In this document: positions 1-10,500 of the stretch, in pieces
How positions within the stretch are numbered: position 1 is the stretch's first letter
Layout of the letters: the number at the start of each line of letters is the position of its first letter
Virus record (IMG/VR): IMGVR_UViG_2703718869_000008
Span: 1-10,500 of that record
DNA length: 10,500 nt
Strand: one strand, 5' to 3'
DNA from: a virus
Lineage: Duplodnaviria > Heunggongvirae > Uroviricota > Caudoviricetes
Notes under the pieces: model-generated
The model's input: the letters and a program-made list of their open reading frames with translations, nothing else
Databases searched by the model: none
Told to the model about the DNA's origin: nothing
Position numbers and translations under genes: made by a program

Positions 1-239
1 CGTCCATATTTCTTTCCCATCCAGGCGTTATCACCAACACGCTCAAGATGCGGAGGGTCGAATATAACCATCGAAAAAGATGCGTCTGCAAATGGTAGTG
101 CACGAAAATCAGCTATCAGATCAGGACTGATAATCAGGCGTCGTCCATCACACAATGTGTGCTCTTCCTTTCTGATATCGCTAAATATCGCCCGGTCGTC
201 ATTCTTATCGAACCAGAACATGCGACTGCCACAGCACAT
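1..239 (-). CDS. Putative SAM-dependent (DNA) methyltransferase, N-terminal fragment; ORF is open to the left window edge
   Basis: Hand translation of the minus strand from ATG (plus 237-239) gives MCCGSRMFWFDKNDDRAIFSDIRKEEHTLCDGRRLIISPDLIADFRALPFADASFSMVIFDPPHLERVGDNAWMGKKYG with no stop before position 1. The LP-x-x-S-x-x-x-VIFDPPH segment resembles motif IV (DPPY-type) of beta-class N6A/N4C methyltransferases. Absent from the ORF track because it has no stop in the window. Start is uncertain (ATG at 239 or 221; no strong RBS). Confidence 0.45.
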   Translation of the reverse strand, partial: MCCGSRMFWFDKNDDRAIFSDIRKEEHTLCDGRRLIISPDLIADFRALPFADASFSMVIFDPPHLERVGDNAWMGKKYG

Positions 240-262
240 GTCGAGGATTGCTGCATGTCCAG

Positions 263-613
263 TCACTGGCTGCCTCCTTTGCGAAGCCGTTCCGCCCATT
301 CTTCAAGGGATTTCTCTGCATATTCACCGGACAGGCCATCAATCGGATGCGATTCATTAGCTAACTCTTCTTTTGCTGACAGAATCATGCGTGTAACGTC
401 GAAAACTTCAGCCAAAGGCTTATTGATAAATCCGTGATTGAAAGCAGCAGCAAGACGGCTTGCGGTATAGTTAATACCCTCGTTGCGAGCCTCAGCACGT
501 ACTTCATCGAATTTACGCACCAGATACTCAGCATTTGTTTCATTCACTTTCAGATCTCGCGGTACACATTTCCCGCGAAGAAACCCTTCCATTTCGAAAA
601 CATTCATGCGCAT
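263..613 (-). CDS. Hypothetical protein, last gene of the leftward early cluster (positional equivalent of yfdS)
   Basis: 116-aa ORF whose start overlaps the stop of the upstream HD-domain gene by 10 nt, suggesting co-transcription and coupling. No recognisable motif. Confidence 0.6.
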   Translation of the reverse strand: MRMNVFEMEGFLRGKCVPRDLKVNETNAEYLVRKFDEVRAEARNEGINYTASRLAAAFNHGFINKPLAEVFDVTRMILSAKEELANESHPIDGLSGEYAEKSLEEWAERLRKGGSQ

Positions 614-1140
614 TTGTGTAACTCCGATAACTCGTTAAAACGTTCCATAAACATCCCGTAGGCATGGCTAGGTGCCAGTGGAATCACGTTGAACATCTCT
701 GTTGCCGGGATGCCTTCCAGTACAGGCCAGAAAGAGCCATCATCAAGCCCGAGATCGCGGCGTTCGGTTGCCAGCATGATAAGATCGGCATATTTCACGG
801 GCGTACTCATAACTGGGGGTAACCCGTATTTCTCACGGATTACGGCGTCAATTTTTTCTTCCATCCGTTTATAGTCAGGAAGAAGGCGTTTCAGTGGAGC
901 GGGGATGTCCTGGCAATACGCTTCTGTTGCATCATGCATTAATGCTTCAAAAGCAAATTCCTGCGGTACCAGCTGGCTGCAAAGAACCGCATGTTGGGCG
1001 ACGCTGTAGAAGTGCGAAAGATGACCGGCAAAGCGACAGATATTTGAAAGGGAAACCGCGATATCGTTAATATCGATGTCGTCTTTATTTATCCTGTCAT
1101 AATAAAAATGCTTCCCGGAAAAAGTTTTAATAAATGACAT
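604..1140 (-). CDS. yfdR: HD-domain metal-dependent phosphohydrolase (YfbR/YfdR-like 5'-nucleotidase family)
   Basis: Track ORF 604..1167 starts at GTG; the internal ATG at 1140 is preceded by GGAGAA-N5 and gives 178 aa (MSFIKTF...). H...HD motif (SVAQHAVL...LMHDATEAY) is typical of HD phosphohydrolases. Size and position after a 274-aa gene match the K-12 CPS-53 yfdQ-yfdR arrangement; the symbol is assigned from synteny and size, not from a search. Confidence 0.78.
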   Translation of the reverse strand: MSFIKTFSGKHFYYDRINKDDIDINDIAVSLSNICRFAGHLSHFYSVAQHAVLCSQLVPQEFAFEALMHDATEAYCQDIPAPLKRLLPDYKRMEEKIDAVIREKYGLPPVMSTPVKYADLIMLATERRDLGLDDGSFWPVLEGIPATEMFNVIPLAPSHAYGMFMERFNELSELHKCA

Positions 1141-1233
1141 TTTGTTCTCCACGTATATGCGCTGCACCGCGCTGAATTCTGGTAAAAAGAATCCCTCACC
1201 ATCCGGCGATTATTGAGTAAATTACGTTTCCAT

Positions 1234-1255
1234 AAATGCCCCCTCAGGGGCATTT
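1234..1255 (-). other. Perfect palindromic hairpin AAATGCCCC-CTCA-GGGGCATTT in the yfdQ-yfdR intergenic spacer (possible attenuator or RNA-processing/stability element)
   Basis: Seen directly: 9-bp perfect stem with 4-nt loop, 12 nt downstream of the yfdQ-like stop on the transcribed minus strand. No clean U-tract follows, so it is not called a terminator. Confidence 0.35.
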
Positions 1256-1267
1256 GCAGTAATGAAA

Positions 1268-2092
1268 TCAGGCGGTGAAAGTACCAATAAAGGTTTCTAC
1301 TTTGCTGTCCTTGAATTTCTCAACAAGCAGATCACGAAATTCGTTAGCCATTTCTTCCTGCACCGCCTCCAGCTGAATAATGCGCAGAACCAGTACCGGA
1401 CGATCGCCAGTGATAATGCTGAGGCGTAATTTAAACGGACGTTCTTTCAGACCTTCAAACGGAATGCATTTAAATTCAAATGCCACTGGCATAATGTCTT
1501 TGGTCTTCGCTTCGACAGACTCCATCAGGGAGCGTTTGCCGCTGAAGTCATTATCTTCAAAATCAGCGGTCTGGTTTGCTTCAATCGTGATTTTACGGAC
1601 CGCCGCAGCCGCTTTTGTTGCCTGAATGGTGTCACCATTAGCATCAAAGCCCACAAGGTAGTCGGCCCAGTCTTCAATCCATTCTGCCAGTGATTTCTGG
1701 GAGTTACGCTCGCCATTAACAGACAACAGAGCAGAGAACGGTGCTGTCTTTTTCAGTTTGAGAGTGGCGGTGTTATCTGCGTGACCTGGTTCATCAATAG
1801 TACCCAGGTTAAGCACACTGACGGCACGCATATTATCAGCATCAATAAAGCAGCGGGTGCCTTCATCTGCAAGATCTTTAGAATAACGGGTAAAGTCATC
1901 GATGCTGGCAGTGGAAAGAGCACCACGGAAACGGAAGCGATTTAAATTAAATTTTTCCAGATCATGAATGCGGAAATTCTCAGGCAATGCCACAGCATCG
2001 GCACCAATCTTACTGATAATTTCATTAACACCCTGAGCAGAAATAAGGGCATGGATTTGATTAATTGCGGTTGCGTCTAAGTTCTGAGACAT
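1268..2092 (-). CDS. yfdQ: YfdQ-like protein (DUF2303 family), function unknown
   Basis: 274-aa ORF, the same length as K-12 YfdQ, with GAGGA-N7-ATG RBS and the same order P-Q-R as the CPS-53 cluster. Family assignment is from memory and synteny, not a search. Confidence 0.75.
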
Positions 2093-2157
2093 AATAAGTC
2101 CTCACTATATAAGGATATTCAGTGATGAGATAAATAATCAGTTAATTAAGAACGATA

Positions 2158-2520
2158 TTAATGACCTGCTGCGCGGAGTTTTCCGTCAGGTTCACCGGCA
2201 AGAGTCAGTAATTGTCCCTGGTCTTCCTGCAGAATAGTCAGGCGACCACCGCGATTGACATACATCGGCGTTTCGGTGGTGTCTTCTTCGGAAATTTTCC
2301 CGCGGTTAGTCGGGCGAACATATGAGAGTTTGTGTTTGATTTTCACACGGTTCTCATCAAATGGTTCGATTTCCAGGTTGAGTGAGACCTTACCTTTGGT
2401 TTTCGTGTTCATCACACCTGAAGCGACTTCACTGAGAACTGCGCCGATTTTGGTTTCAAATACGCCGCCGTCCAGCTCCCCGATAAATGCCTGCACATCA
2501 GTACTGCGTTCGCTAGCCAT
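2158..2520 (-). CDS. yfdP: YfdP-like small early protein (120 aa), function unknown
   Basis: Track ORF 2158..2706 has an unlikely 62-codon N-terminal extension across the structured leader. The internal ATG at 2520 is preceded by GAGGAG-N7 and gives MASERSTDVQ..., 120 aa, matching K-12 YfdP size and position. Symbol is from synteny only. Confidence 0.65.
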   Translation of the reverse strand: MASERSTDVQAFIGELDGGVFETKIGAVLSEVASGVMNTKTKGKVSLNLEIEPFDENRVKIKHKLSYVRPTNRGKISEEDTTETPMYVNRGGRLTILQEDQGQLLTLAGEPDGKLRAAGH

Positions 2521-2568
2521 TTTGCTGCTCCTCATCATATCGACCCTGCAAGGTCGGTTGGTTTCTCC

Positions 2569-2657
2569 ACAAAACAGAGAAGAACACCTGCGGTGGCAGC
2601 CGCCCGGATGGATTGGGTTATGAGCCCGTCGTCCGGTGATGCTCTTCTCTGTTTTGT
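2569..2657 (-). repeat. Long-range perfect 15-bp inverted repeat (ACAAAACAGAGAAGA / TCTTCTCTGTTTTGT) with 59-nt spacer in the leader upstream of the yfdP-like gene
   Basis: Seen directly: arms at 2569-2583 and 2643-2657 are exact reverse complements. The spacer contains a further small GC stem (GCGG...CCGC). Confidence 0.6.
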
Positions 2658-2703
2658 AAAAAGAGCGGTACCAGCCGGAAGCAAGTGTACAAACTGGTAC
2701 CGC
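2656..2703 (-). terminator. Terminator-like hairpin (10-bp perfect stem GCGGTACCAG/CTGGTACCGC, 19-nt loop) followed on the minus strand by UCUUUUUAC
   Basis: Seen directly: plus 2665-2674 and 2694-2703 are exact reverse complements, and a T-tract follows in the minus-strand sense. The loop is long for a classical intrinsic terminator. It lies between the N-position HTH gene and the yfdP-like gene (tL1-like position). Confidence 0.4.
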
Positions 2704-2934
2704 CAAAGCAGTGGCTGTTGTGGTGACCGGTGCTGATCTCCGGCTTGCGGTTATTTCAGACTCTCACGGGCGTTTAATTACCCCGCCGAACAGCTCTTTT
2801 CCGCAATAGCTGCAATGTCTTTCGCGCATCAGCCTGCGCATTCACCACAACGCTAAGGATTCTCTCTGGTTGAAAATACTTAGCTGTTATGTGCCTGCTT
2901 TTAGCCACATCAGGCGAGGTGGTAGGTACGTGAG

Positions 2935-3303
2935 CTACTTGGTGGTATTTGCCTTCGATGAGGCAAGATAGGCATCAAGATCACTTTTTAGGTAAATAAC
3001 CTTTCTACCGATTTTTAAAAAAGGTATTCGAACTTTTCCTGTGCTAGCCCAATTAGCTAAGGTTTGCGCTTCTACGCCGATATAGGCTGCGGCGTCTTCT
3101 CTATTCATTTTTTCATGTTGTTCTGACAGAATACTCGTTGCTTCAAAATCAAAGCCCAGCTTTTCAAAGGCATAGATAATAGAGCCCAAAGCCATTTGTT
3201 TAACTGTTCTGTAGTTACTGCTTTCAACTTGGCTTAATGCAGTTTTTGCTGCTTCAATCACCACAAGCCAGGCATCTCGTTGGTTGTCGATACTGCCATC
3301 CAT
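2935..3303 (-). CDS. Helix-turn-helix DNA-binding protein (Xis/AlpA/MerR-like HTH in C-terminal half), first gene of the leftward early operon
   Basis: ATG at 3303 preceded by AGGAGA-N6 (track start GTG at 3309 abuts the RBS). C-terminal segment AAAYIGVEAQTLANWASTGKVRIPFLKIGRKVIYLKSDLDAYL resembles small excisionase-type HTH domains. Low-GC gene, unlike lambda N (not Arg-rich). Confidence 0.65.
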   Translation of the reverse strand: MDGSIDNQRDAWLVVIEAAKTALSQVESSNYRTVKQMALGSIIYAFEKLGFDFEATSILSEQHEKMNREDAAAYIGVEAQTLANWASTGKVRIPFLKIGRKVIYLKSDLDAYLASSKANTTK

Positions 3304-3361
3304 ATTCACTCTCCTGCCATGTGCGAATCATCCGGTCATTCATACGCCACCGTCGGCTACT

Positions 3362-3420
3362 TCGTGGGCGTCCTGCCTGTTCGTTATCTTTGATATAAAA
3401 TCTAACTTAACTTAGTTTTG
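3362..3420 (-). promoter_or_regulatory. Putative leftward early promoter/operator (pL/oL-like) with CTTAGTT-core operator-like palindromes
   Basis: AT-rich spacer between cI and the next leftward gene. Contains AACTTAGTT (3409-3417), sharing its core with palindromes in the cI-cro intergenic region; CTTAGTT recurs at 3446-3452. Promoter hexamers not confidently assigned. Confidence 0.4.
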
Positions 3421-3425
3421 ATGGC

Positions 3426-3462
3426 AAGAGAAAACACCAAACTTTTCTTAGTTCGGTGTTTT
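3426..3462 (-). terminator. Putative rho-independent terminator immediately downstream of cI (stem AAAACACCGAAC/GUUUGGUGUUUU with one G-U, 8-nt loop, U-rich 3' side)
   Basis: Seen directly: plus 3431-3442 and 3451-3462 are near-perfect reverse complements. On the minus-strand transcript the stem is followed by CUCUU. Lies 19 nt after the cI stop. Confidence 0.45.
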
Positions 3463-3480
3463 GGTTAGAGAAAAGGGGGG

Positions 3481-4107
3481 CTAGAGTTCGTATTGAACTC
3501 CTTTGACTACACCAATGATGAGGCAATTACCATTGATCGGGATGTTGGGGTACCGGGGATTTAATGGCACTAAAAACTTTTGAGGGCCATCGATAACTAA
3601 TTTTTTTACTGTGGCTTCGTTTGTTCCATCAAGTCTAGCGATGACTATTTTTCCATGCCGGGGTTCTGCATCAGGATCTACAATCACTGTTGCGCCTTCT
3701 GGTATTGTTGGGAGGCCGTTAGGGTTAGTCATGGAGTCGCCTTTAACCTCCAATGCAAATGAGTTATCACCAATCTTTAATGATGTATCTACCCACTTGT
3801 CTACTTCACTAAACACTTCTGCTGTCCTGCACTCAGTAAACTGCCCAGCCTGAACCCACGAGATTACAGGAACTCTGCGCATGTTTGTGACGAGTTTGCC
3901 TTCAAACTCCGCACCATAAAGAATGTAATCTATTGACGTATTGAAGAACTTCGCTAATTTTGAAAGTGCTTCCCCTCCAGGGACATTGATGTCTTTCTCC
4001 CAGTACCCCACAGCAACGTCACTTACTCCACAAAATTTACCCAATTCTTTCTGGGACGTTCTGGTAACTCTTCTCAGAGCTTTTATACGCTGACCAACCG
4101 TTTCCAT
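3481..4107 (-). CDS. cI: Phage CI-type repressor (N-terminal XRE-family HTH plus C-terminal S24 LexA-like autopeptidase domain)
   Basis: 208 aa. N-terminal HTH (QKELGKFCGVSDVAVGYWE), GDSM serine motif and downstream KK lysine motif typical of RecA-stimulated self-cleaving repressors. Divergent from a cro-like gene. Confidence 0.9.
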   Translation of the reverse strand: METVGQRIKALRRVTRTSQKELGKFCGVSDVAVGYWEKDINVPGGEALSKLAKFFNTSIDYILYGAEFEGKLVTNMRRVPVISWVQAGQFTECRTAEVFSEVDKWVDTSLKIGDNSFALEVKGDSMTNPNGLPTIPEGATVIVDPDAEPRHGKIVIARLDGTNEATVKKLVIDGPQKFLVPLNPRYPNIPINGNCLIIGVVKGVQYEL

Positions 4108-4204
4108 AGGAGCACCATTTCTTTAATTACTAAGTAATCTTAGTTTTTATTGACCTAAGATAGATTGATAATTAACATCTAATAAAACTTAGTTTGGAGG
4201 GCAT
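4108..4204. promoter_or_regulatory. Divergent immunity promoter/operator region (pRM/pR-like) with repeated near-palindromes ATTACTAAGTAAT and AAACTTAGTTT
   Basis: 97-bp AT-rich spacer between divergent cI and cro-like starts. Palindromes at 4126-4138 and 4185-4195 plus CTTAG/CTAAG at 4139-4143 and 4154-4158. Candidate pR: TTGACC (4150-4155), 17-nt spacer, TAACAT (4173-4178). GGAGG RBS 4 nt before the cro ATG. Confidence 0.6.
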
Positions 4205-4405
4205 ATGACGACTGACGATATCGAAAGCTACTTCGGCAGCATTGAGAAAGTTGCTGCTTTTTTCGGCATAACAACTGAAGCCGTTTATCAGTGGCGAAAC
4301 CGTCCTGGCCAGTTAATTCCAAAAGGACGTGCAGCAGAGGCTGCATATAGAACTTGCGGACGGTTGCCATTTAAACCTGAGCTTTATGAAAAATCTAATG
4401 GATAA
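4205..4405 (+). CDS. cro: Cro-like small HTH regulator (Cro/YdaS-type)
   Basis: 66-aa ORF divergent from cI, GGAGG RBS, central HTH-like segment (VAAFFGITTEAVYQWRNR). Position and size match cro. Symbol is positional/functional, not a lambda Cro sequence match. Confidence 0.75.
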   Translation: MTTDDIESYFGSIEKVAAFFGITTEAVYQWRNRPGQLIPKGRAAEAAYRTCGRLPFKPELYEKSNG

Positions 4406-4442
4406 ATCGATTTACAGAAACCACAGATATGAGGGCTTAAAC

Positions 4443-5027
4443 GTGGGTAAAGAACCTGAATGGAAAGTTGATAAGCAACCAGCATGGCTGGTGGCAGCAA
4501 TACGAAGAACGATTGCTGATTTACCTCATGGCTATGAGGAAGCAGCAGAAATTCTTGGTTTGTATAAATCTGATGATATCACCCCAGCAAAAGATCAATT
4601 GCATAACAGACTGCGTAGCGGTGGGGATCAAATTTTTCCACTTGAGTGGGCCATGGTTTTACAGGATGCCAGTGGTACCAGGCATGTAACGGATGCAATA
4701 GCCCGTCGTAGTAATGGGGTGTTTGTGCCGCTGGTGGTCATTGATGACATTGACAATGGTGACATTAATCAGCGGCTGATGGAGTCAATAGAATGGATTG
4801 GCAAGCATTCCCAGTACTTACGCAAGGCAACTGCTGATGGAGTTATTGACCAAGCTGAGCGTGAGCAAATCGAAGAGAACAGCTACCAAGTAATGGCGAA
4901 GTGGCAGGAGCATTTAACACTGTTATTTCGTGTTTTTTGTGCGCCGGAAAAGAGTAACGCCCGCGAGTGTGCAGCTCCGGGCGTCGTGGCGTCGATTGCT
5001 TCTGGTTGTGGAGAAACTAACGCATGA
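4443..5027 (+). CDS. Hypothetical early regulator in the cII position (possibly CII/YdaT-like); start uncertain
   Basis: Track ORF 4329..5027 overlaps cro in another frame. In-frame GTG at 4443 is preceded by GAGGG-N7; alternatives are ATG 4386 or 4398 without a good RBS. Stop overlaps the next start (ATGA). Function inferred only from position. Confidence 0.55.
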   Translation: MGKEPEWKVDKQPAWLVAAIRRTIADLPHGYEEAAEILGLYKSDDITPAKDQLHNRLRSGGDQIFPLEWAMVLQDASGTRHVTDAIARRSNGVFVPLVVIDDIDNGDINQRLMESIEWIGKHSQYLRKATADGVIDQAEREQIEENSYQVMAKWQEHLTLLFRVFCAPEKSNARECAAPGVVASIASGCGETNA

Positions 5028-5860
5028 ACAGTTTAACGGCAAATAACCGTTTGTCGCAACAGCTGGTGTTCAGTGTCGCTGAACACCTGTTGTTACGGCA
5101 TGAATGCAGATTACCAAATCACCTGGCTGTAAGTAACCACAGAGAACTTTACCTGACTGTGGGGGGCGAGTTGTGCTGGAACTTAACCGCTGGTTTCGTG
5201 ACGGAAGAGGGCTTTATGTCCATGTTATTCGTTGGGAGCCAGAAACACAGCGCGTTATCTATCTTCGCAAAGACTACCCGCATGAGTGCTTTAGTCCTTT
5301 GTGGAAATTCAGGCGTGATTTTGTTGAGTGTGAAGGACCACCAGCACATTGATTCTGCCATTCCGGGACGTTACACTGTTCAGGCACCTTATAAAGCGGG
5401 TGTCGGGATTGGCGTCCTGGAATTGCATACGGCGACAATTGGCGCGTTAGCGTCTTTTTTGTTGCTACAACTCAGCTATACCCAAATTATGGTGGGCTGG
5501 GTGGGGGCACCGAAAGGTGCGCCGGTTTCCGTATGCGCCGGTTACGCCAACCCTGCTCAGTTCACCACCAGCGAAATTGGCGTTTCCGGTGGTGGAAGTT
5601 ATCCATTGCATACGGAGGCTGCCATCATGGCTACTGTCCCAGCCCTCTCTCGTCTGAATGATGAAGACTTACATAAACTCAGTTATGTAACAACTGCACT
5701 ACGTGCTCTGCGCAAGGTAACTCTTTCGGATCCGCAGGCGCATCAGGTTTTGGTAGAAACCCTTCTTAACTTGCAGGCTGAACGTATTCGTCTGGCGGAT
5801 AAGGCTAATTTTCATATTCACCGTCTCCTGAATATCAGCGGAGGGCATCGTCATGCTTAA
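5024..5860 (+). CDS. Hypothetical protein (278 aa), unknown function
   Basis: Long stop-free frame; ATGA overlap with the upstream gene and ATGCTTAA overlap with the downstream gene. C-terminal 75 aa look clearly protein-like, but the middle is compositionally odd and an alternative frame is also open (see findings). Confidence 0.5.
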   Translation: MNSLTANNRLSQQLVFSVAEHLLLRHECRLPNHLAVSNHRELYLTVGGELCWNLTAGFVTEEGFMSMLFVGSQKHSALSIFAKTTRMSALVLCGNSGVILLSVKDHQHIDSAIPGRYTVQAPYKAGVGIGVLELHTATIGALASFLLLQLSYTQIMVGWVGAPKGAPVSVCAGYANPAQFTTSEIGVSGGGSYPLHTEAAIMATVPALSRLNDEDLHKLSYVTTALRALRKVTLSDPQAHQVLVETLLNLQAERIRLADKANFHIHRLLNISGGHRHA

Positions 5861-6089
5861 TCCGTTGATCCTCAATATTTGCCGTTTGCTTCAGCGTAAA
5901 AAAACATCAATTCCTACAGTTGGGCAGTGGTACACCACGCCTGCAGGGCATGTTCTACGTGTCAGCCTGGTTGACCGTGAATGTCAGAAGGTGATTTGTG
6001 AACCGCTGGGCCGTAATTACCGCGTCAGTATGCCGCTTATAGCCTTTCGCTCCGGAAAAAACATGAAGCATCTCGGAGGTGCAGCATGA
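5853..6089 (+). CDS. Hypothetical small protein (78 aa)
   Basis: GGAGGG-N7-ATG RBS and translational coupling on both sides (overlaps upstream stop; ATGA overlap with the initiator gene). Confidence 0.6.
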   Translation: MLNPLILNICRLLQRKKTSIPTVGQWYTTPAGHVLRVSLVDRECQKVICEPLGRNYRVSMPLIAFRSGKNMKHLGGAA

Positions 6090-6904
6090 GTATGGAGCTG
6101 ATGGTTAAAGCGATGAAAATTCGAGTGGGTAATCCATTGCGAAAACTGGTTCTGATCAAGCTGGCTGATAATGCCAGCGATCAGGGTGAGTGCTGGCCCA
6201 GCTACCAGCATATTGCTGACCAGTGCGAGATTAGCAAACGTTCTGTGATGAATCATATTGCGGCCCTTTGTGATTCCGGGCTGGTAAAAAAAGTCACCCG
6301 GAAAGGTGAAAAAGGTAACTCAAGTAATATCTATCTCCTTCATCTTGATGGTGCAGGAGATTCACTAGGGGGTAGTGCAAATAATTCACTATCTAGTGCA
6401 GCAAATTCACCAGGTAGTGCAGGAGTTGCACCAGGGGGTGGTGCAGGAGATTCACCCAGAACCAGTCACTCTTTTGAACCAGTCAAAGAACCAGTCAATG
6501 AACCAATAGCTGTTGGTGCATCTGCTGATGAGTCCGTGCGAGTTCGTTCAAACCGACCGGAATACTCTCCGGAGTTTGAGCAGGCATGGCTGGCATACCC
6601 CAAACGTGCTGGTGGCAATTCAAAATCTGCAGCCTTCAAAGCCTGGAAAGCTCGTTTGAATGAGGGGGTAAAACCCGAAACCATGCTGGAAGGTGTGAAA
6701 CGCTACGCGGGCTGGGTATCTGCGATGGGTAACAGCGGCACACAATTTGTGAAACAGGCTGTCACGTTCTTTGGTCCGGATCGTCATTTCGAAGAATCCT
6801 GGGAAGTTCCTGCGGTATCTGCAGCCAGACGCGAGGACCCGTACTTCAAAGCCAGTTACGACAACGTGGACTACAGCCAGATCCCGGCAGGATTCAGGGG
6901 GTGA
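6086..6904 (+). CDS. Phage replication initiator (lambda O-like organisation: N-terminal HTH, internal iteron-encoded Gly/Ser/Ala linker, C-terminal domain)
   Basis: GGAGG-N7-ATG. N-terminal HTH segment (LVLIKLADNASDQGECWPSYQHIADQCEISKRSVMNHIAALCDSGLV) typical of phage replication initiators. The middle of the gene carries tandem iterons, as in lambda O. Not the lambda O sequence itself. Confidence 0.72.
   Translation: MSMELMVKAMKIRVGNPLRKLVLIKLADNASDQGECWPSYQHIADQCEISKRSVMNHIAALCDSGLVKKVTRKGEKGNSSNIYLLHLDGAGDSLGGSANNSLSSAANSPGSAGVAPGGGAGDSPRTSHSFEPVKEPVNEPIAVGASADESVRVRSNRPEYSPEFEQAWLAYPKRAGGNSKSAAFKAWKARLNEGVKPETMLEGVKRYAGWVSAMGNSGTQFVKQAVTFFGPDRHFEESWEVPAVSAARREDPYFKASYDNVDYSQIPAGFRG
6347..6506 (+). 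repeat. Putative replication origin: five 15-bp iterons GTGCA-N5-T(T/G)CAC at 21-24 bp spacing, then three to four GAACCAGTCA repeats
   Basis: Seen directly: iterons start at 6351, 6375, 6396, 6417 and 6441 (first and fifth identical: GTGCAGGAGATTCAC). GAACCAGTCA occurs at 6459, 6476 and 6488 with a degenerate copy at 6500. Located inside the initiator gene, analogous to ori-lambda within O. Confidence 0.55.
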
Positions 6905-6906
6905 TC

Positions 6907-7395
6907 ATGAGTCTTTTGAATGAAGTTCAGAAATTCATTGAAGCCCATCCGGGGTGTACTTCCGGAGACATTGCGGATGCTTTTGCAGGTTACTCACGGC
7001 AGCGCGTTCTGCAGTCAGCAAGCAAGTTACGTCAGAGTGGGCGTGTGGCTCACCGTTGTGAAGGAGATACACGCAGACATTTCCCGCGCCTGACTGAGAG
7101 AGCGCAGGAACCGGAACCACAACCAGTTCGAGAAACCAGACCTGTGCGCAATTTCTATGTCGGCACTAACGATCCACGGGTGATTTTGTGCCTGACCCGC
7201 CAGGCTGAAGAACTGGAGTCCAGGGGCTTATACCGTCGTGCTGCAACCGTGTGGATGGCGGCATTCCGTGAAAGCCACTCCCAGCCAGAACAAAACAATT
7301 TTCTGGCGCGTCGTGAGCGGTGCTTACGGAAAAGCAGCAAGCGCGCTGCATCGGGTGAAGAGTGGTATCTGTCAGGGAATTACGTGGGGGCTTAA
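6907..7395 (+). CDS. Putative PerC/Pch-family transcriptional regulator with extra N-terminal domain
   Basis: GGGGG-N5-ATG at 6907 (track start GTG 6901 overlaps the upstream stop). C-terminal AEELESRGLYRRAATVWMAAF resembles the PerC signature (LE-x-GL-W/Y-RRAA-x-W) as recalled. Stop overlaps the next start (TAATG). Family assignment is tentative. Confidence 0.5.
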   Translation: MSLLNEVQKFIEAHPGCTSGDIADAFAGYSRQRVLQSASKLRQSGRVAHRCEGDTRRHFPRLTERAQEPEPQPVRETRPVRNFYVGTNDPRVILCLTRQAEELESRGLYRRAATVWMAAFRESHSQPEQNNFLARRERCLRKSSKRAASGEEWYLSGNYVGA

Positions 7396-8048
7396 TGAGT
7401 AATAAATATTGCCAGGCGCTGGTGGAACTGCGGAACAAACCAGCCCATGAACTGAAGGAAGTGGGCGATCAGTGGCGCACGCCGGACAACATTTTCTGGG
7501 GAATTAACACCCTGTTTGGCCCGTTTGTTCTGGATCTGTTTACTGACGGTGATAACGCCAAATGTGCCGCGTATTACACGGCGGAAGATAACGCGCTGGC
7601 GCATGACTGGTCAGAACGTCTTGCGGAGCTTAAAGGTGCTGCCTTTGGTAATCCCCCATACAGCCGCGCCAGTCAGCATGAGGGGAAATACATCACTGGC
7701 ATGCGTTACATCATGAAGCATGCCAGTGCCATGCGTGATAAAGGCGGGCGCTATGTTTTCCTGATCAAAGCTGCCACCAGCGAAGTGTGGTGGCCGGAAG
7801 ATGCAGATCATATTACTTTTATTCGCGGGCGTATTGGTTTTGAACTGCCTGTCTGGTTTATCCCGAAAGACGAGAAGCAGGTACCGACAGGAGCTTTTTT
7901 CGCTGGTGCTATTGCTGTTTTTGACAAGACCTGGAAGGGACCGGCAATCAGCTACATTGGGCGCGATGAACTTGAGGCATGTGGTGAGGCGTTTCTGGCG
8001 CAGGTTCGCCAGCAGGCGGAAAAACTGGTCAGGGAGATGGCTGCATGA
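7395..8048 (+). CDS. Phage-type DNA N6-adenine methyltransferase (Dam family), orphan
   Basis: GGGGG-N4-ATG at 7395 (track ORF starts upstream at 7362 in the same frame). Motifs WRTPD, FVLDLFTD and catalytic NPPYS are characteristic of the phage Dam family. No adjacent restriction endonuclease gene. Confidence 0.85.
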   Translation: MSNKYCQALVELRNKPAHELKEVGDQWRTPDNIFWGINTLFGPFVLDLFTDGDNAKCAAYYTAEDNALAHDWSERLAELKGAAFGNPPYSRASQHEGKYITGMRYIMKHASAMRDKGGRYVFLIKAATSEVWWPEDADHITFIRGRIGFELPVWFIPKDEKQVPTGAFFAGAIAVFDKTWKGPAISYIGRDELEACGEAFLAQVRQQAEKLVREMAA

Positions 8049-8371
8049 CGACATTAACTCAATGCCAGCAGCAGGTGCTGGATATGCTGATTTCTTATCA
8101 GAAAGAGCGTGGCTTTCCGCCAACCAATCAGGAGGTGGCAACCATGCTGGGATACCGTTCAGTGAATGCAGCGGTAGAGCATCTTCGCGCACTGGAGAAA
8201 AAAGGCGTCATCACGATAAAGCGTGGCGTGGCCCGGGGGATAACGCTTCATACCGCGGTGAAGGACGACGACAGCGAGGCGGTCGGGATTATCCACTCAC
8301 TGCTTGCCGGTGAGGAAAACGCAAGGCTGCGTGCAACCCACTGGTTACATGAGAGGGGCCTGAAAGTATGA
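8045..8371 (+). CDS. LexA N-terminal DNA-binding-domain homolog lacking the S24 peptidase/cleavage domain
   Basis: 108 aa. N-terminal ~70 aa align closely with E. coli LexA residues 1-70 as recalled (MTTLTQCQQQVLDMLISYQKERGFPPTNQEVATMLGYRSVNAAVEHLRALEKKGVI vs [56 protein letters not shown]). Recognition-helix residues NAA-EHL are conserved; there is no Ala-Gly cleavage site or Ser/Lys dyad. ATGA overlaps on both sides. Confidence 0.8.
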   Translation: MTTLTQCQQQVLDMLISYQKERGFPPTNQEVATMLGYRSVNAAVEHLRALEKKGVITIKRGVARGITLHTAVKDDDSEAVGIIHSLLAGEENARLRATHWLHERGLKV

Positions 8372-8763
8372 AGCTGATCCTGCCTTTTCCGCCCAGCGTG
8401 AACACGTACTGGCGACACCCCAACAAAGGGGCGTTTGCTGGTAAGAGCCTGATAAGCGCGGCGGGGCGCAAATTCCAGAGCGCGGCGTGTGCAGCAATAG
8501 TTGAGCAGTTACGTCGTCTGCCAAAACCAACGTCGGCACCTGCATCAGTGGAGATCGTGTTGTTTCCTCCGGATAACCGGATCCGCGATCTGGACAACTA
8601 TAACAAGGCGCTGTTTGACGCCCTGACCCACGCGGGTGTGTGGGAAGACGACAGTCAGGTGAAAAGAATGCTGGTGGAGTGGGGACCGGTTATCCCGGAA
8701 GGGAAGGTCGAGATCACTATCAGTAAGTACGAAAAAGCGAGTTGCAAATTAGCAACTCGGTAA
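8368..8763 (+). CDS. rusA: RusA-family Holliday junction resolvase
   Basis: 131 aa. N-terminal LPFPPSVNTYWRH and central DLDNYNKALFDALTHAGVWEDDSQV match the RusA pattern (PWPPS-N-YYR, DLDN-K---DALT-AG-W-DD-QV). Typical nin-region position. Confidence 0.88.
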   Translation: MKLILPFPPSVNTYWRHPNKGAFAGKSLISAAGRKFQSAACAAIVEQLRRLPKPTSAPASVEIVLFPPDNRIRDLDNYNKALFDALTHAGVWEDDSQVKRMLVEWGPVIPEGKVEITISKYEKASCKLATR

Positions 8764-8808
8764 CGGAATTGAGCAACACCCTAAATTTGGGTATTACCTC
8801 GTTAAAGA

Positions 8809-8828
8809 TACTGTATTTATGAACAGTG
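8809..8828 (+). promoter_or_regulatory. Canonical LexA (SOS) box TACTGTATTTATGAACAGTG upstream of the KilA-N gene
   Basis: Seen directly: CTGT-N8-ACAG with AT-rich spacer, close to consensus TACTGTATATATATACAGTA. Lies about 87 nt upstream of the KilA-N start in an AT-rich intergenic region that presumably holds its promoter. Confidence 0.6.
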
Positions 8829-8914
8829 TATCCTTGATAACTATTAAAAATCGCAGTAAGTTCATCTTGCATCAACGAAAAGGGAGTGCAGTCCCGAAAT
8901 TTGTGGAGAAACCA

Positions 8915-9730
8915 ATGAATCAGTTGCTTGTAATTGATGGCGTTTCTGTGCGCCAGTACTTTGAATCTAACTACTGTCTTAACGACCTTCAGAAAGCTGC
9001 TCTTCTTGCCGCTGGTGAGAATCGCTCCTCCCGTTCGCTGGAAGTTCACGAGTTTATGCGTCGTCCTGAAACGAAGGCTCTTGTGGAATTACTGGAAGAA
9101 GAAACTACGGGAGATTCCCGTAGTATTCCTGTCATCACCATTCAGGGGCGCAATGGTGGGACGTATGTCTGTAAAGAGCTGGTCTATGCATATGCAATGT
9201 GGATCAGCCCGGCATTCAGCTTAAAAGTGATACGTACTTTTGATGCGCTTCATAATTCATCACCAGAAGAAACCACATCCGACAAAATTAAATCCGGGGT
9301 CATTCTGCTTGAATCAGCAGCAAAGACTCTAAATCTGTCAAACTCCTCGAAACTTGGTGCATACCAGAAATTATCAAAGGTAGCTGGTCTTCCTGAACTT
9401 ATGCCGATCTATGCCATTGATGCACCTGCTGATGCGCCAGATGGTTCAAGCCGCCCTACGCTGTCGCTGAGTGCACTGCTGAAGCAGTATGGTATCCGCC
9501 TGACGGCTAATCAGGCATATCACCAGATGGTGAAGCTGGGGATCGTCGAGCAGCGCGAACGATACAGCCGTACCGGGATTAACAACATCAAAAAATTCTG
9601 GTCGCTGACGGCGAAAGGCTGCATGTTCGGCAAGAACATCACCAGTCCCGCAAATCCGCGCGAGACGCAGCCGCATTTCTTCGAATCCCGATTCCCTGAG
9701 CTGTTAAAGCTGCTCGATACCGTTCATTGA
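8915..9730 (+). CDS. KilA-N domain protein (candidate SOS-inducible antirepressor or Kil-like factor)
   Basis: ATG at 8915 with GGAGAA-N5 (track start 8819 lies inside the SOS box and is unlikely). N-terminal region (VSVRQYFESNYCLNDLQKAA...GRNGGTYVCKELVYAYAMWISPAFSLKVIRTFDAL) fits the KilA-N pattern. Gene is lower in GC than its neighbours (moron-like). Confidence 0.75.
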   Translation: MNQLLVIDGVSVRQYFESNYCLNDLQKAALLAAGENRSSRSLEVHEFMRRPETKALVELLEEETTGDSRSIPVITIQGRNGGTYVCKELVYAYAMWISPAFSLKVIRTFDALHNSSPEETTSDKIKSGVILLESAAKTLNLSNSSKLGAYQKLSKVAGLPELMPIYAIDAPADAPDGSSRPTLSLSALLKQYGIRLTANQAYHQMVKLGIVEQRERYSRTGINNIKKFWSLTAKGCMFGKNITSPANPRETQPHFFESRFPELLKLLDTVH

Positions 9731-9737
9731 GGTGACC

Positions 9738-10500
9738 GTGAGAGCACTACTGACCCCTGAAATTGCCCCGCGTATGGGGATCGTATTGTTCAGGCCAGGT
9801 TCAGAGCTGATGCCCCTGTTTATGCAGGGGCGTGTCCTGCTGGAGCCTGAGCCGGAACGTTATTCATCTTTCGCTAGTGGTGCCGTTCCGGCGGCATCAC
9901 AACCGCTGGCGGATGATCCTTCCGTTCGGGCCGTGTTCCGCAATGAGGCAGTGATCCGTCGTGCTGGTGGCGTGGAATGTCTTGAAAGCTGGTTACTTCG
10001 TGAAAAAGGCTGCCAGTGGCTTCATTCCGACTGGCACAGCGAGAACATGACCACAATGCGACACGCTCCGGGTGCAATCCGTCTGTGCTGGCACTGCGAT
10101 AACCAGCTGCGCGATCAGTTCACGGAACGGCTGGAATCAATGGCAACGGATAACTGTGCCCGCTGGGTGTTGTCTGTTGTGCGTCGGGATCTCGGTTTTG
10201 ATGACAGTCACGTTGTGACAATGCCGGAACTGTGCTGGTGGCTGATTCGTAATGACCTGGCGGATGCCTTACCGGAAAGTGCAGCCCGTAAGGCACTGAG
10301 ATTACCGAAGCCTGTTGTGCCGTCTGTCACCCGGGAAAGTGACCTTGTGCCTTCGGTTCCTGCCACCAGCATCATCCAGGATAAAGCGAAAAAGGTGCTG
10401 GCGCTGAAAGTGGATCCGGAGTCGCCGGAGTCTTTTATGTTACGCACCAAACGTCGCCGCTGGGTTAATGAAAAGTACACGCGCTGGGTTAAGACGCAGC
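9738..10500 (+). CDS. Cys/His-rich hypothetical protein, partial (possibly DUF968-like); ORF continues past the right window edge
   Basis: Hand translation from GTG 9738 (GAGGT-N4-GTG) is stop-free to the window end: VRALLTPEIAPRMGIV...CQWLHSDWH...CWHCDNQ...MLRTKRRRWVNEKYTRWVKTQ. Absent from the ORF track because it has no stop. DUF968 assignment is from memory of a similar RRRW-x-NEKYT-x-WV segment; low certainty. Confidence 0.5.
   Translation, partial: MRALLTPEIAPRMGIVLFRPGSELMPLFMQGRVLLEPEPERYSSFASGAVPAASQPLADDPSVRAVFRNEAVIRRAGGVECLESWLLREKGCQWLHSDWHSENMTTMRHAPGAIRLCWHCDNQLRDQFTERLESMATDNCARWVLSVVRRDLGFDDSHVVTMPELCWWLIRNDLADALPESAARKALRLPKPVVPSVTRESDLVPSVPATSIIQDKAKKVLALKVDPESPESFMLRTKRRRWVNEKYTRWVKTQ

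Follow-up and report, generated by a model that had tools for sequence, protein, structure and literature searches.

The DNA analysed here, a 10,500-nt window comprising positions 1 to 10,500 of IMG/VR record IMGVR_UViG_2703718869_000008 (class Caudoviricetes), carries a leftward cluster of early genes, yfdP, yfdQ and yfdR. The cluster is followed by a fourth, variable gene and preceded by a conserved structured leader RNA, with a predicted cI-operated leftward promoter further upstream (Table 1). The initial annotation had matched the four open reading frames (ORFs) of the cluster to yfdP-yfdQ-yfdR-yfdS of the Escherichia coli K-12 element CPS-53. All four are present at the coordinates given there, and we found the first three proteins to be nearly identical to their counterparts when globally aligned with the CPS-53 proteins of K-12 MG1655: YfdP at 119 of 120 residues (99.2%), YfdQ at 270/274 (98.5%) and YfdR at 173/178 (97.2%). 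The similarity to K-12 YfdQ and YfdR is therefore clear, but the fourth ORF is not YfdS past residue 36.

The 274-aa protein had been called DUF2303-like, and a full-length match to PF10065 bears this out (E 8.1e-92, 307.7 bits against a cut-off of 26.6, profile positions 2-269 of 269). A homologue of 274 aa is deposited as 'YfdQ Protein' in PDB 9o7m (E 1.9e-44), an entry with 36 chains; the example chain is C, and chains A and B may be another molecule. The YfdP homologues listed all carry PF27127, which is precomputed for these homologues. The description of the 178-aa protein as an HD phosphohydrolase also stands: the metal residues of the HD superfamily (H50, H69-D70 and D119), read from the sequence, are all present and none of the five differences from K-12 YfdR falls at an HD residue, though the Pfam YfbR-like/HD match is sub-threshold (24.2 bits against a cut-off of 25.9). 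YfdR matches phrog_318, 'deoxyribonucleoside 5' monophosphate phosphatase' (E 1e-109), carries the corresponding name in RefSeq (dNMP phosphatase) and matches PDB 2gz4, a structural-genomics homologue (E 3e-14). The 127-nt spacer between yfdQ and yfdR (1141-1267, minus strand) contains a G+C-rich hairpin, AUGCCCC-UGA-GGGGCAU, directly after the yfdQ stop codon.

The immunity context had been described as intact, and the cI, cro and CII-like genes and the operators found here confirm it. The repressor is LexA-like, with full-length helix-turn-helix (HTH_3) and Peptidase_S24 domains, and carries Ala87-Gly88, Ser125 (in GDSM) and Lys168/169, the determinants of RecA-stimulated self-cleavage. Each flank of cI carries two 16-bp operator sites that fit the pattern nCTAAn-N4-CTTAGT. 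These four sites overlap promoter-like sequences facing left and right, and the one at 4129-4144 is a perfect palindrome. An HTH and S24 autoprotease cI, a divergent cro and repeated operators at the predicted pL and pR are the attributes of a lambdoid immunity region, and the anatomy of a cI-controlled pL/pR pair, as predicted from the DNA, is present. A 13-bp inverted repeat (3431-3462) directly follows the cI stop codon, shares sequence with the distal oL site and probably serves as the terminator of cI, that is, of the PRM transcript.

The cluster had been placed directly under the cI/pL region. It does lie on the same strand downstream of the predicted pL, but about 880 nt separate the two, and these contain an ORF of 124 aa, with HTH_17 at its C-terminal end, and a structured spacer of 414 nt. 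The 124-aa ORF is variable among relatives, occurring in 2 of 80 loci in a close set of IMG/VR contigs with near-identical YfdQ. Its HTH_17/excisionase-like domain shows weak similarity, below cut-offs, to MADS Mad1. Relatives of HTH_17 include AlpA-type antiterminators, a link that might matter for read-through of the terminator-like hairpin P0, which lies further along the same transcript. The spacer folds far more stably than its shuffles (z -5.3), and no sigma-70-like promoter was predicted in 2521-2934 at the scan threshold. P0 has a 13-bp stem whose sequence varies in other genera while its position is kept, with compensatory change in five of six pairs, and a conserved block that may be a promoter lies directly 5' of it in other genera. 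The P0 loop of six homologous loci (L130, L160, L116, L127, L133 and L109) is enlarged by inserted sequence that includes a Shine-Dalgarno-like GGAGG and ATG/GTG-TTC-TG. Downstream of this insertion no frame is conserved; a ribosome that started at it would cover the 3' arm of the hairpin.

The leader that follows P0 is a conserved structured RNA with strong covariation support. We aligned homologous leaders from 22 loci, mostly of different genera, and obtained an RNAalifold consensus of 45 pairs, 17 of which show compensatory double changes. In this alignment 96.8% of the cells are paired, compared with 42-52% in slid controls, and 70 cells carry double changes, compared with at most 16 in the slid controls. 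For four of five pairing measures none of 500 shuffles reached the observed value; for the fifth, further pair types, 34 of 500 did. A covariance model of the leader, R1, scores 120.6 bits on the window and recovers a single copy at each locus, in every case on the sense strand directly upstream of yfdP (100-146 bits), with only a weak echo on the reverse strand. Weaker matches occur at the equivalent position in Yersinia, Serratia, Rahnella and Providencia loci. The model has no match in K-12 and no second copy in the window, and it scores at most 11 bits on positions 20000-32000 of HK022, the put/immunity region. Rfam 15 yields no match at E<=1 in 2500-2950. In a Leclercia locus (L097) a pL-like promoter with palindromic operators stands directly upstream of the leader, which indicates that yfdP is the true first pL gene in some relatives.

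A coding explanation of this conservation was rejected. The candidate is a 49-aa ORF at 2535-2684, and one homologous leader (L102) interrupts it with an in-frame TAG inside the block of highest conservation. In two others (L109 and L092) this block does not stand in the corresponding frame, and the variation is compensatory rather than concentrated at third codon positions. Among known phage elements, lambda nutL and HK022 put resemble the leader in being structured elements in the 5' part of a pL transcript. The yfdP leader differs from them in having neither a boxB/N system nor a rightward copy in the window.

The most conserved hairpin of the leader, CGGGCUCAUAACCC, is identical at 14 of 14 nt to positions 29-42 of the E. 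coli initiator tRNA-fMet (metZ). These positions form the anticodon arm, with three G-C pairs and the CAU anticodon, and the loop of the leader hairpin is CUCAUAA. One of 2000 mononucleotide shuffles reached an equally good match, so the identity alone is no proof, yet it coincides with the invariant hairpin. Some homologous leaders have the loop CUCAUUC instead of CUCAUAA, and one, from Scandinavium, is more divergent. ARAGORN finds no tRNA gene in the window, and the prophage tRNA-Met of strain E2863 has an anticodon arm that differs from the leader hairpin. The E. coli thrS operator is likewise a tRNA anticodon-arm mimic in an mRNA leader, and differs from the yfdP leader in the tRNA mimicked. 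A literature search returned no described leader mimic of initiator tRNA-fMet, and to our knowledge none is known.

Table 1. Positions of the genes, promoters and RNA elements of the leftward operon and immunity region in the window.
Feature	Position	Strand	Description
Class I SAM (S-adenosylmethionine)-dependent methyltransferase, 5' part	3-266	minus	continues past window edge; sits in the place of yfdT
116-aa chimeric ORF	263-613	minus	YfdS-type N-terminus (36 aa) and EaE-type C-terminal domain; overlaps yfdR stop by 10 nt
yfdR	604-1140	minus	178 aa from ATG (187 aa from upstream GTG); HD-domain phosphohydrolase
yfdQ	1268-2092	minus	274 aa, DUF2303
yfdP	2158-2520	minus	120 aa counted from the ATG after the GAGGAG Shine-Dalgarno
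Leader RNA core	2541-2665	minus	about 125 nt, ahead of yfdP ribosome-binding site; P0 extends the element to 2703
P4	2556..2553 with 2545..2542	minus	yfdP ribosome-binding site follows
P3	2603..2600 with 2593..2590	minus	RNAalifold consensus
Anticodon-arm-like G-C hairpin	2628..2615	minus	CGGGCUCAUAACCC
P2	2636..2630 with 2610..2604	minus	RNAalifold consensus
P1	2662..2638 with 2588..2564	minus	long stem enclosing P2
P0 terminator-like hairpin	2703..2665	minus	13 bp; GGCGGUACCAG...CUGGUACCGC then UCUUUUUAC
124-aa HTH_17 ORF	2935-3309	minus	first ORF after pL; C-terminal HTH_17 (Pfam); RefSeq annotates 2935-3108 only, 57 aa
Candidate pL	3427..3399	minus	TTGCCA-17-TAGATT; operators 3401-3416 and 3437-3452
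cI-type repressor	3481-4107	minus	208 aa, full-length HTH_3 and Peptidase_S24 (Pfam), LexA-like
Candidate pR/oR	4150-4178	plus	TTGACC-17-TAACAT; operators 4129-4144 and 4178-4193
cro, P22_Cro-type	4205-4405	plus	Pfam; CII-like gene follows

The leader defines a slot that does not always hold yfdP and yfdQ. A pattern scan of IMG/VR returned at least 120 stretches, 95 of which were examined. In 64 of the 95, yfdP lies 105-132 nt downstream, and 22 of the 26 stretches without yfdP keep the full leader (87-136 bits). In about 14 of the 95 contigs the leader is followed by RdgC (PF04381, E 1.5e-115) instead of yfdP-yfdQ, and in most of these yfdR comes after rdgC; an example is L170:3078-4168 (305 aa), and others include L192, L194 and L243. 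In about seven contigs the leader is joined straight to yfdR. The slot order is leader, then either yfdP-yfdQ or rdgC, then yfdR, then a variable gene. In the contigs without yfdP-yfdQ, the leader is joined near the G+C-rich hairpin of the yfdQ-yfdR spacer.

RdgC is a DNA-binding modulator of RecA that has been reported to be RexA-like in structure and to lie directly left of cI in some lambdoid phages. RdgC shares with YfdP-YfdQ the position behind the leader and ahead of yfdR, but it has no detectable sequence or fold similarity to YfdP or YfdQ, and the functional analogy comes from position only. Because RdgC fills the same leader-defined slot, YfdP-YfdQ may have an activity directed at DNA, or at recombination or replication. 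The leader RNA, together with its initiator-tRNA-like hairpin and the alternation of yfdPQ with rdgC, is the sole lead in the region that goes beyond existing knowledge. The leader keeps its structure across many enterobacterial genera and always stands between a terminator-like hairpin and an exchangeable early-left cassette. We tentatively propose, as a possibility that we rate a little below an even chance, that the leader and P0 constitute an undescribed class of cis-acting phage RNA that would gate early-left expression through the translation-initiation machinery (the 30S P site, initiation factor IF3 or the methionyl-tRNA synthetase MetRS), or would engage initiator-tRNA anticodon nucleases such as VapC, either as their target or as a decoy, with YfdP-YfdQ as a positional analogue of RdgC.

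Of 5426 complete E. coli genomes, 2452 (∼45%) carry the 2.06-kb segment from yfdR through yfdQ and yfdP to the leader with a coverage of at least 80%. A genome can have up to seven copies, and the segment is 100% identical in strain E2863. Phage records with the cassette number 179 and comprise SfV, SfIV, mEp460 and numerous Stx1/Stx2 phages, among others. The cassette is often multicopy in E. coli and present in Shiga-toxin (Stx) phages, yet only one laboratory study has addressed its function. In the close set (n = 80), YfdP was found at 79 loci, YfdR at 78, true YfdS at 46, YfdT at 28, the 116-aa variant of the fourth gene at 8 and the same cI type at 14. A second set, of 80 loci from different species with YfdQ 39-99% identical, has YfdP at 79 (adjacent to yfdQ), YfdR at 59, true YfdS at 6 and YfdT at 4; the 116-aa variant was scored at 4 loci, counting any match, mostly to the shared N-terminus. 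The counts for YfdP and YfdR in the species set (79/80 versus 59/80) identify yfdP-yfdQ as the conserved unit and yfdR as a frequent accessory. The most distant loci of that set (Marinobacter, Photobacterium and Kistimonas) are all without a yfdR-like gene. At 46 of the 80 species loci, an S24 repressor is encoded 0.6-2.6 kb upstream on the same strand.

The arrangement is common and already known. The cassette has been reported as frequent in the early left operons of lambdoid phages (PMC12315714), and SfV orf29-orf32, mEp460, Stx phages, ST64B gp35-37 and LLS gp37-39 all show the same leftward layout of cI, small variable ORF, terminator, yfdP-yfdQ-yfdR and variable gene. The SfV record annotates a terminator ahead of yfdP. 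SfV, mEp460 and the Stx phages are plaque-forming or inducible phages with this arrangement, and the DNA of phages of this type is 97-98% identical to the window over ∼505-2856. They differ from it in immunity type (cI is often just 41-42% identical), in the first pL ORF and in the fourth gene. The K-12 element CPS-53 (KpLE1) has yfdP-yfdQ-yfdR-yfdS-yfdT in the same order, with the same spacing and gene overlaps as the window, but its cI/cro/pL region and RNA leader have been lost, and homology begins ∼20 nt before the yfdP ATG. The expression state of the genes in CPS-53 is uninformative because the whole immunity region and the leader are lost there. CPS-53 also has YfdS (DUF551) and YfdT, where the window instead has an EaE-type chimera and a methyltransferase.

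The initial annotation noted that YfdR binds DnaA and that overexpression of yfdQ-R-S-T inhibits initiation, and the published work agrees. Multicopy yfdQRT or yfdQRS suppresses the over-initiation of hda-185 and inhibits initiation in wild-type cells (Noguchi & Katayama 2016, PMC4776307). The inhibitory set is yfdQ and yfdR with either yfdS or yfdT; yfdQR alone failed, and yfdP was dispensable (PMC4776307). K-12 YfdR binds domain I of DnaA (Phe46) and competes with DiaA and DnaB (PMC4776307). Binding was shown for the K-12 protein only, to which the allele in the window is 97.2% identical. Binding to DnaA domain I is common to K-12 YfdR, DiaA, DnaB and Bacillus subtilis SirA, and E. coli Dps is also a domain I inhibitor; lambda P, which binds domain III, sets the precedent that a phage can block initiation in its host with one of its own proteins. 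YfdR differs from these DnaA inhibitors as an HD-domain protein of unrelated sequence that inhibits moderately in vitro and in vivo needs YfdQ together with YfdS or YfdT. The proposal that the cluster is a host-replication takeover module is an already published hypothesis, since the authors of PMC4776307 suggest the same, with an ancestral propagative phage and a lambda P-like role, and already point to the SfV orf29-31 homologues.

On balance we consider it probable, with appreciable room for doubt, that the cluster is a standard accessory cassette of a lambdoid early-left operon, repressed in the lysogen, expressed early under additional gating and acting on host DNA transactions. The anatomy predicts that the cI operators would keep the cassette silent in the lysogen and that its transcription would start early upon infection or SOS induction, with RecA-stimulated cleavage of cI during the SOS response derepressing the leftward promoter. 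Derepression on induction, which the initial annotation had assumed, is plausible because the cluster is on the same strand downstream of the predicted cI-operated pL. Expression is nevertheless probably gated rather than simply derepressed, as a terminator-like hairpin and the leader intervene and no N-like antiterminator is evident; P0 and the leader would then modulate the transcription or translation that reaches yfdP. The most likely role of the products is to interfere early with host DNA transactions. Binding of DnaA by YfdR and the requirement for YfdQ in the oriC block in vivo, which could underlie this interference, were shown with the K-12 proteins (97-98% identical), and in multicopy only.

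Several observations weigh against this account and, in particular, against replication arrest. The published effect was seen in multicopy only, deletion had no phenotype, and the authors allow for an overexpression artefact (PMC4776307). The published inhibitory set is incomplete in the window, which has yfdQ and yfdR and lacks a DUF551-type yfdS and yfdT. Targeting of DnaA cannot be the core function of the cassette, because yfdR is absent from 21 of the 80 species loci that keep yfdP-yfdQ. The structure models of YfdP and YfdQ have no informative fold match; that of YfdQ (pLDDT, predicted local distance difference test, 76) gave no significant match in a fold-library search. Between pL and yfdP, where the terminator-like hairpin stands, we recognised no antitermination of the N/nut or put type: the first pL ORF is HTH_17 and not N-like, and the leader has no copy in the rightward operon as a lambda-type nut site would. 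The takeover hypothesis is plausible but applies here only in part: the minimal gene set is not found in the window and yfdR is dispensable across species. Since yfdR is dispensable and the requirement for YfdS or YfdT goes unanswered here, we regard host replication arrest as a natural, selected function of the cassette as possible but somewhat doubtful.

An unlikely alternative, though the strongest of those considered, makes the cassette a nucleotide-pool or counter-defence module, in which YfdR would work chiefly as a 5'-deoxynucleotidase or other HD phosphohydrolase that alters dNMP/dNTP or signalling-nucleotide pools early in infection, a large YfdP-YfdQ assembly would sequester or shield a host factor, and DnaA binding would be incidental. 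The intact HD motif of YfdR and its naming as a dNMP phosphatase by PHROG and RefSeq fit such a role, as does a dGTPase-family protein among the neighbouring early-left genes of related prophages. The similarity of YfdR to the 5'-deoxynucleotidase YfbR is, however, confined to the HD motif and to weak, sub-threshold Pfam scores; YfdR falls far under the YfbR equivalog cut-off (NCBIfam NF003009, 19.9 bits against 122) and is reported to have much lower nucleotide affinity (PMC4776307). The 36 YfdQ chains in PDB 9o7m suggest a large oligomer, a suggestion drawn from the chain count only. PADLOC, whose scope is defence and not anti-defence proteins, matched none of the four cassette proteins.

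Slightly less probable again is a Rex-like function in the lysogen, with the cassette expressed in the prophage by read-through from PRM/cI or from a promoter of its own and conferring stress tolerance or superinfection exclusion. K-12 yfdQ and yfdS deletions raise sensitivity to H2O2 or methyl methanesulfonate (cited in PMC4776307), overproduction of YfdQ alters the production of another phage, and RdgC, which can stand behind the same leader, is RexA-like in structure and, according to a published proposal, shares a transcript with cI. The anatomy of the window argues the other way: the operators and pL (3399-3452) separate cI from the cassette, the hairpin after cI and a second terminator-like hairpin ahead of the leader stand in the path of read-through, and the spacer is devoid of a predicted sigma-70-like promoter. 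An unrecognised recombination (Rec) module replacing Red/Erf functions is very improbable, for although the cassette is present in phages without any known Rec module, such as LLS (PMC12315714), it stands beside complete Rec modules elsewhere (ArgO145), its proteins have no fold similarity to Rad52, Rad51 or Gp2.5-type annealases, and the authors of PMC12315714 judged this role unlikely.

These results bear on how experiments would be designed in an inducible prophage as opposed to the decayed K-12 remnant: the conserved unit is the leader with yfdP and yfdQ, yfdR is optional, and many natural copies of the cassette go without the YfdS or YfdT that the published inhibition requires. The leader RNA, if regulatory, would provide a handle on early-left control in lambdoid phages that lack N.

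The fourth ORF is a chimera. Its alignment with K-12 YfdS is confined to residues 1-36 (52 of 146 aligned columns are identical overall), and the rest of the protein, residues 36-116, corresponds to the C-terminal part of phrog_614, phrog_14548 and phrog_368. The C-terminus matches those of P22 EaE, ST64T Eae and 'Ead/Ea22-like' proteins at 36-95% identity, and the ORF looks like a phrog_614 protein that has lost an internal segment. It has no Pfam match and lacks the DUF551 C-terminal domain; K-12 YfdS belongs to phrog_583 and has this different C-terminus. Fourth genes of the cassette occupy a mosaic or recombination hot spot and often have no more in common than an N-terminal stretch of ∼36-49 residues. 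yfdT is not in the window, and DUF551 genes lie further left in related prophages, beyond the window's edge.

Two Rfam matches above the gathering score lie on the plus strand of the rightward operon, isrK at 5384-5460 (58.9 bits) and C4 antisense RNA at 5485-5572 (80.7 bits), with a weak match to the c4-a1b1 target at 5371-5423. Together the three matches suggest an antirepressor-control RNA module of the P1/P7 immI-like or Gifsy IsrK type, and the 278-aa ORF that overlaps them (5024-5860) is probably not a gene.

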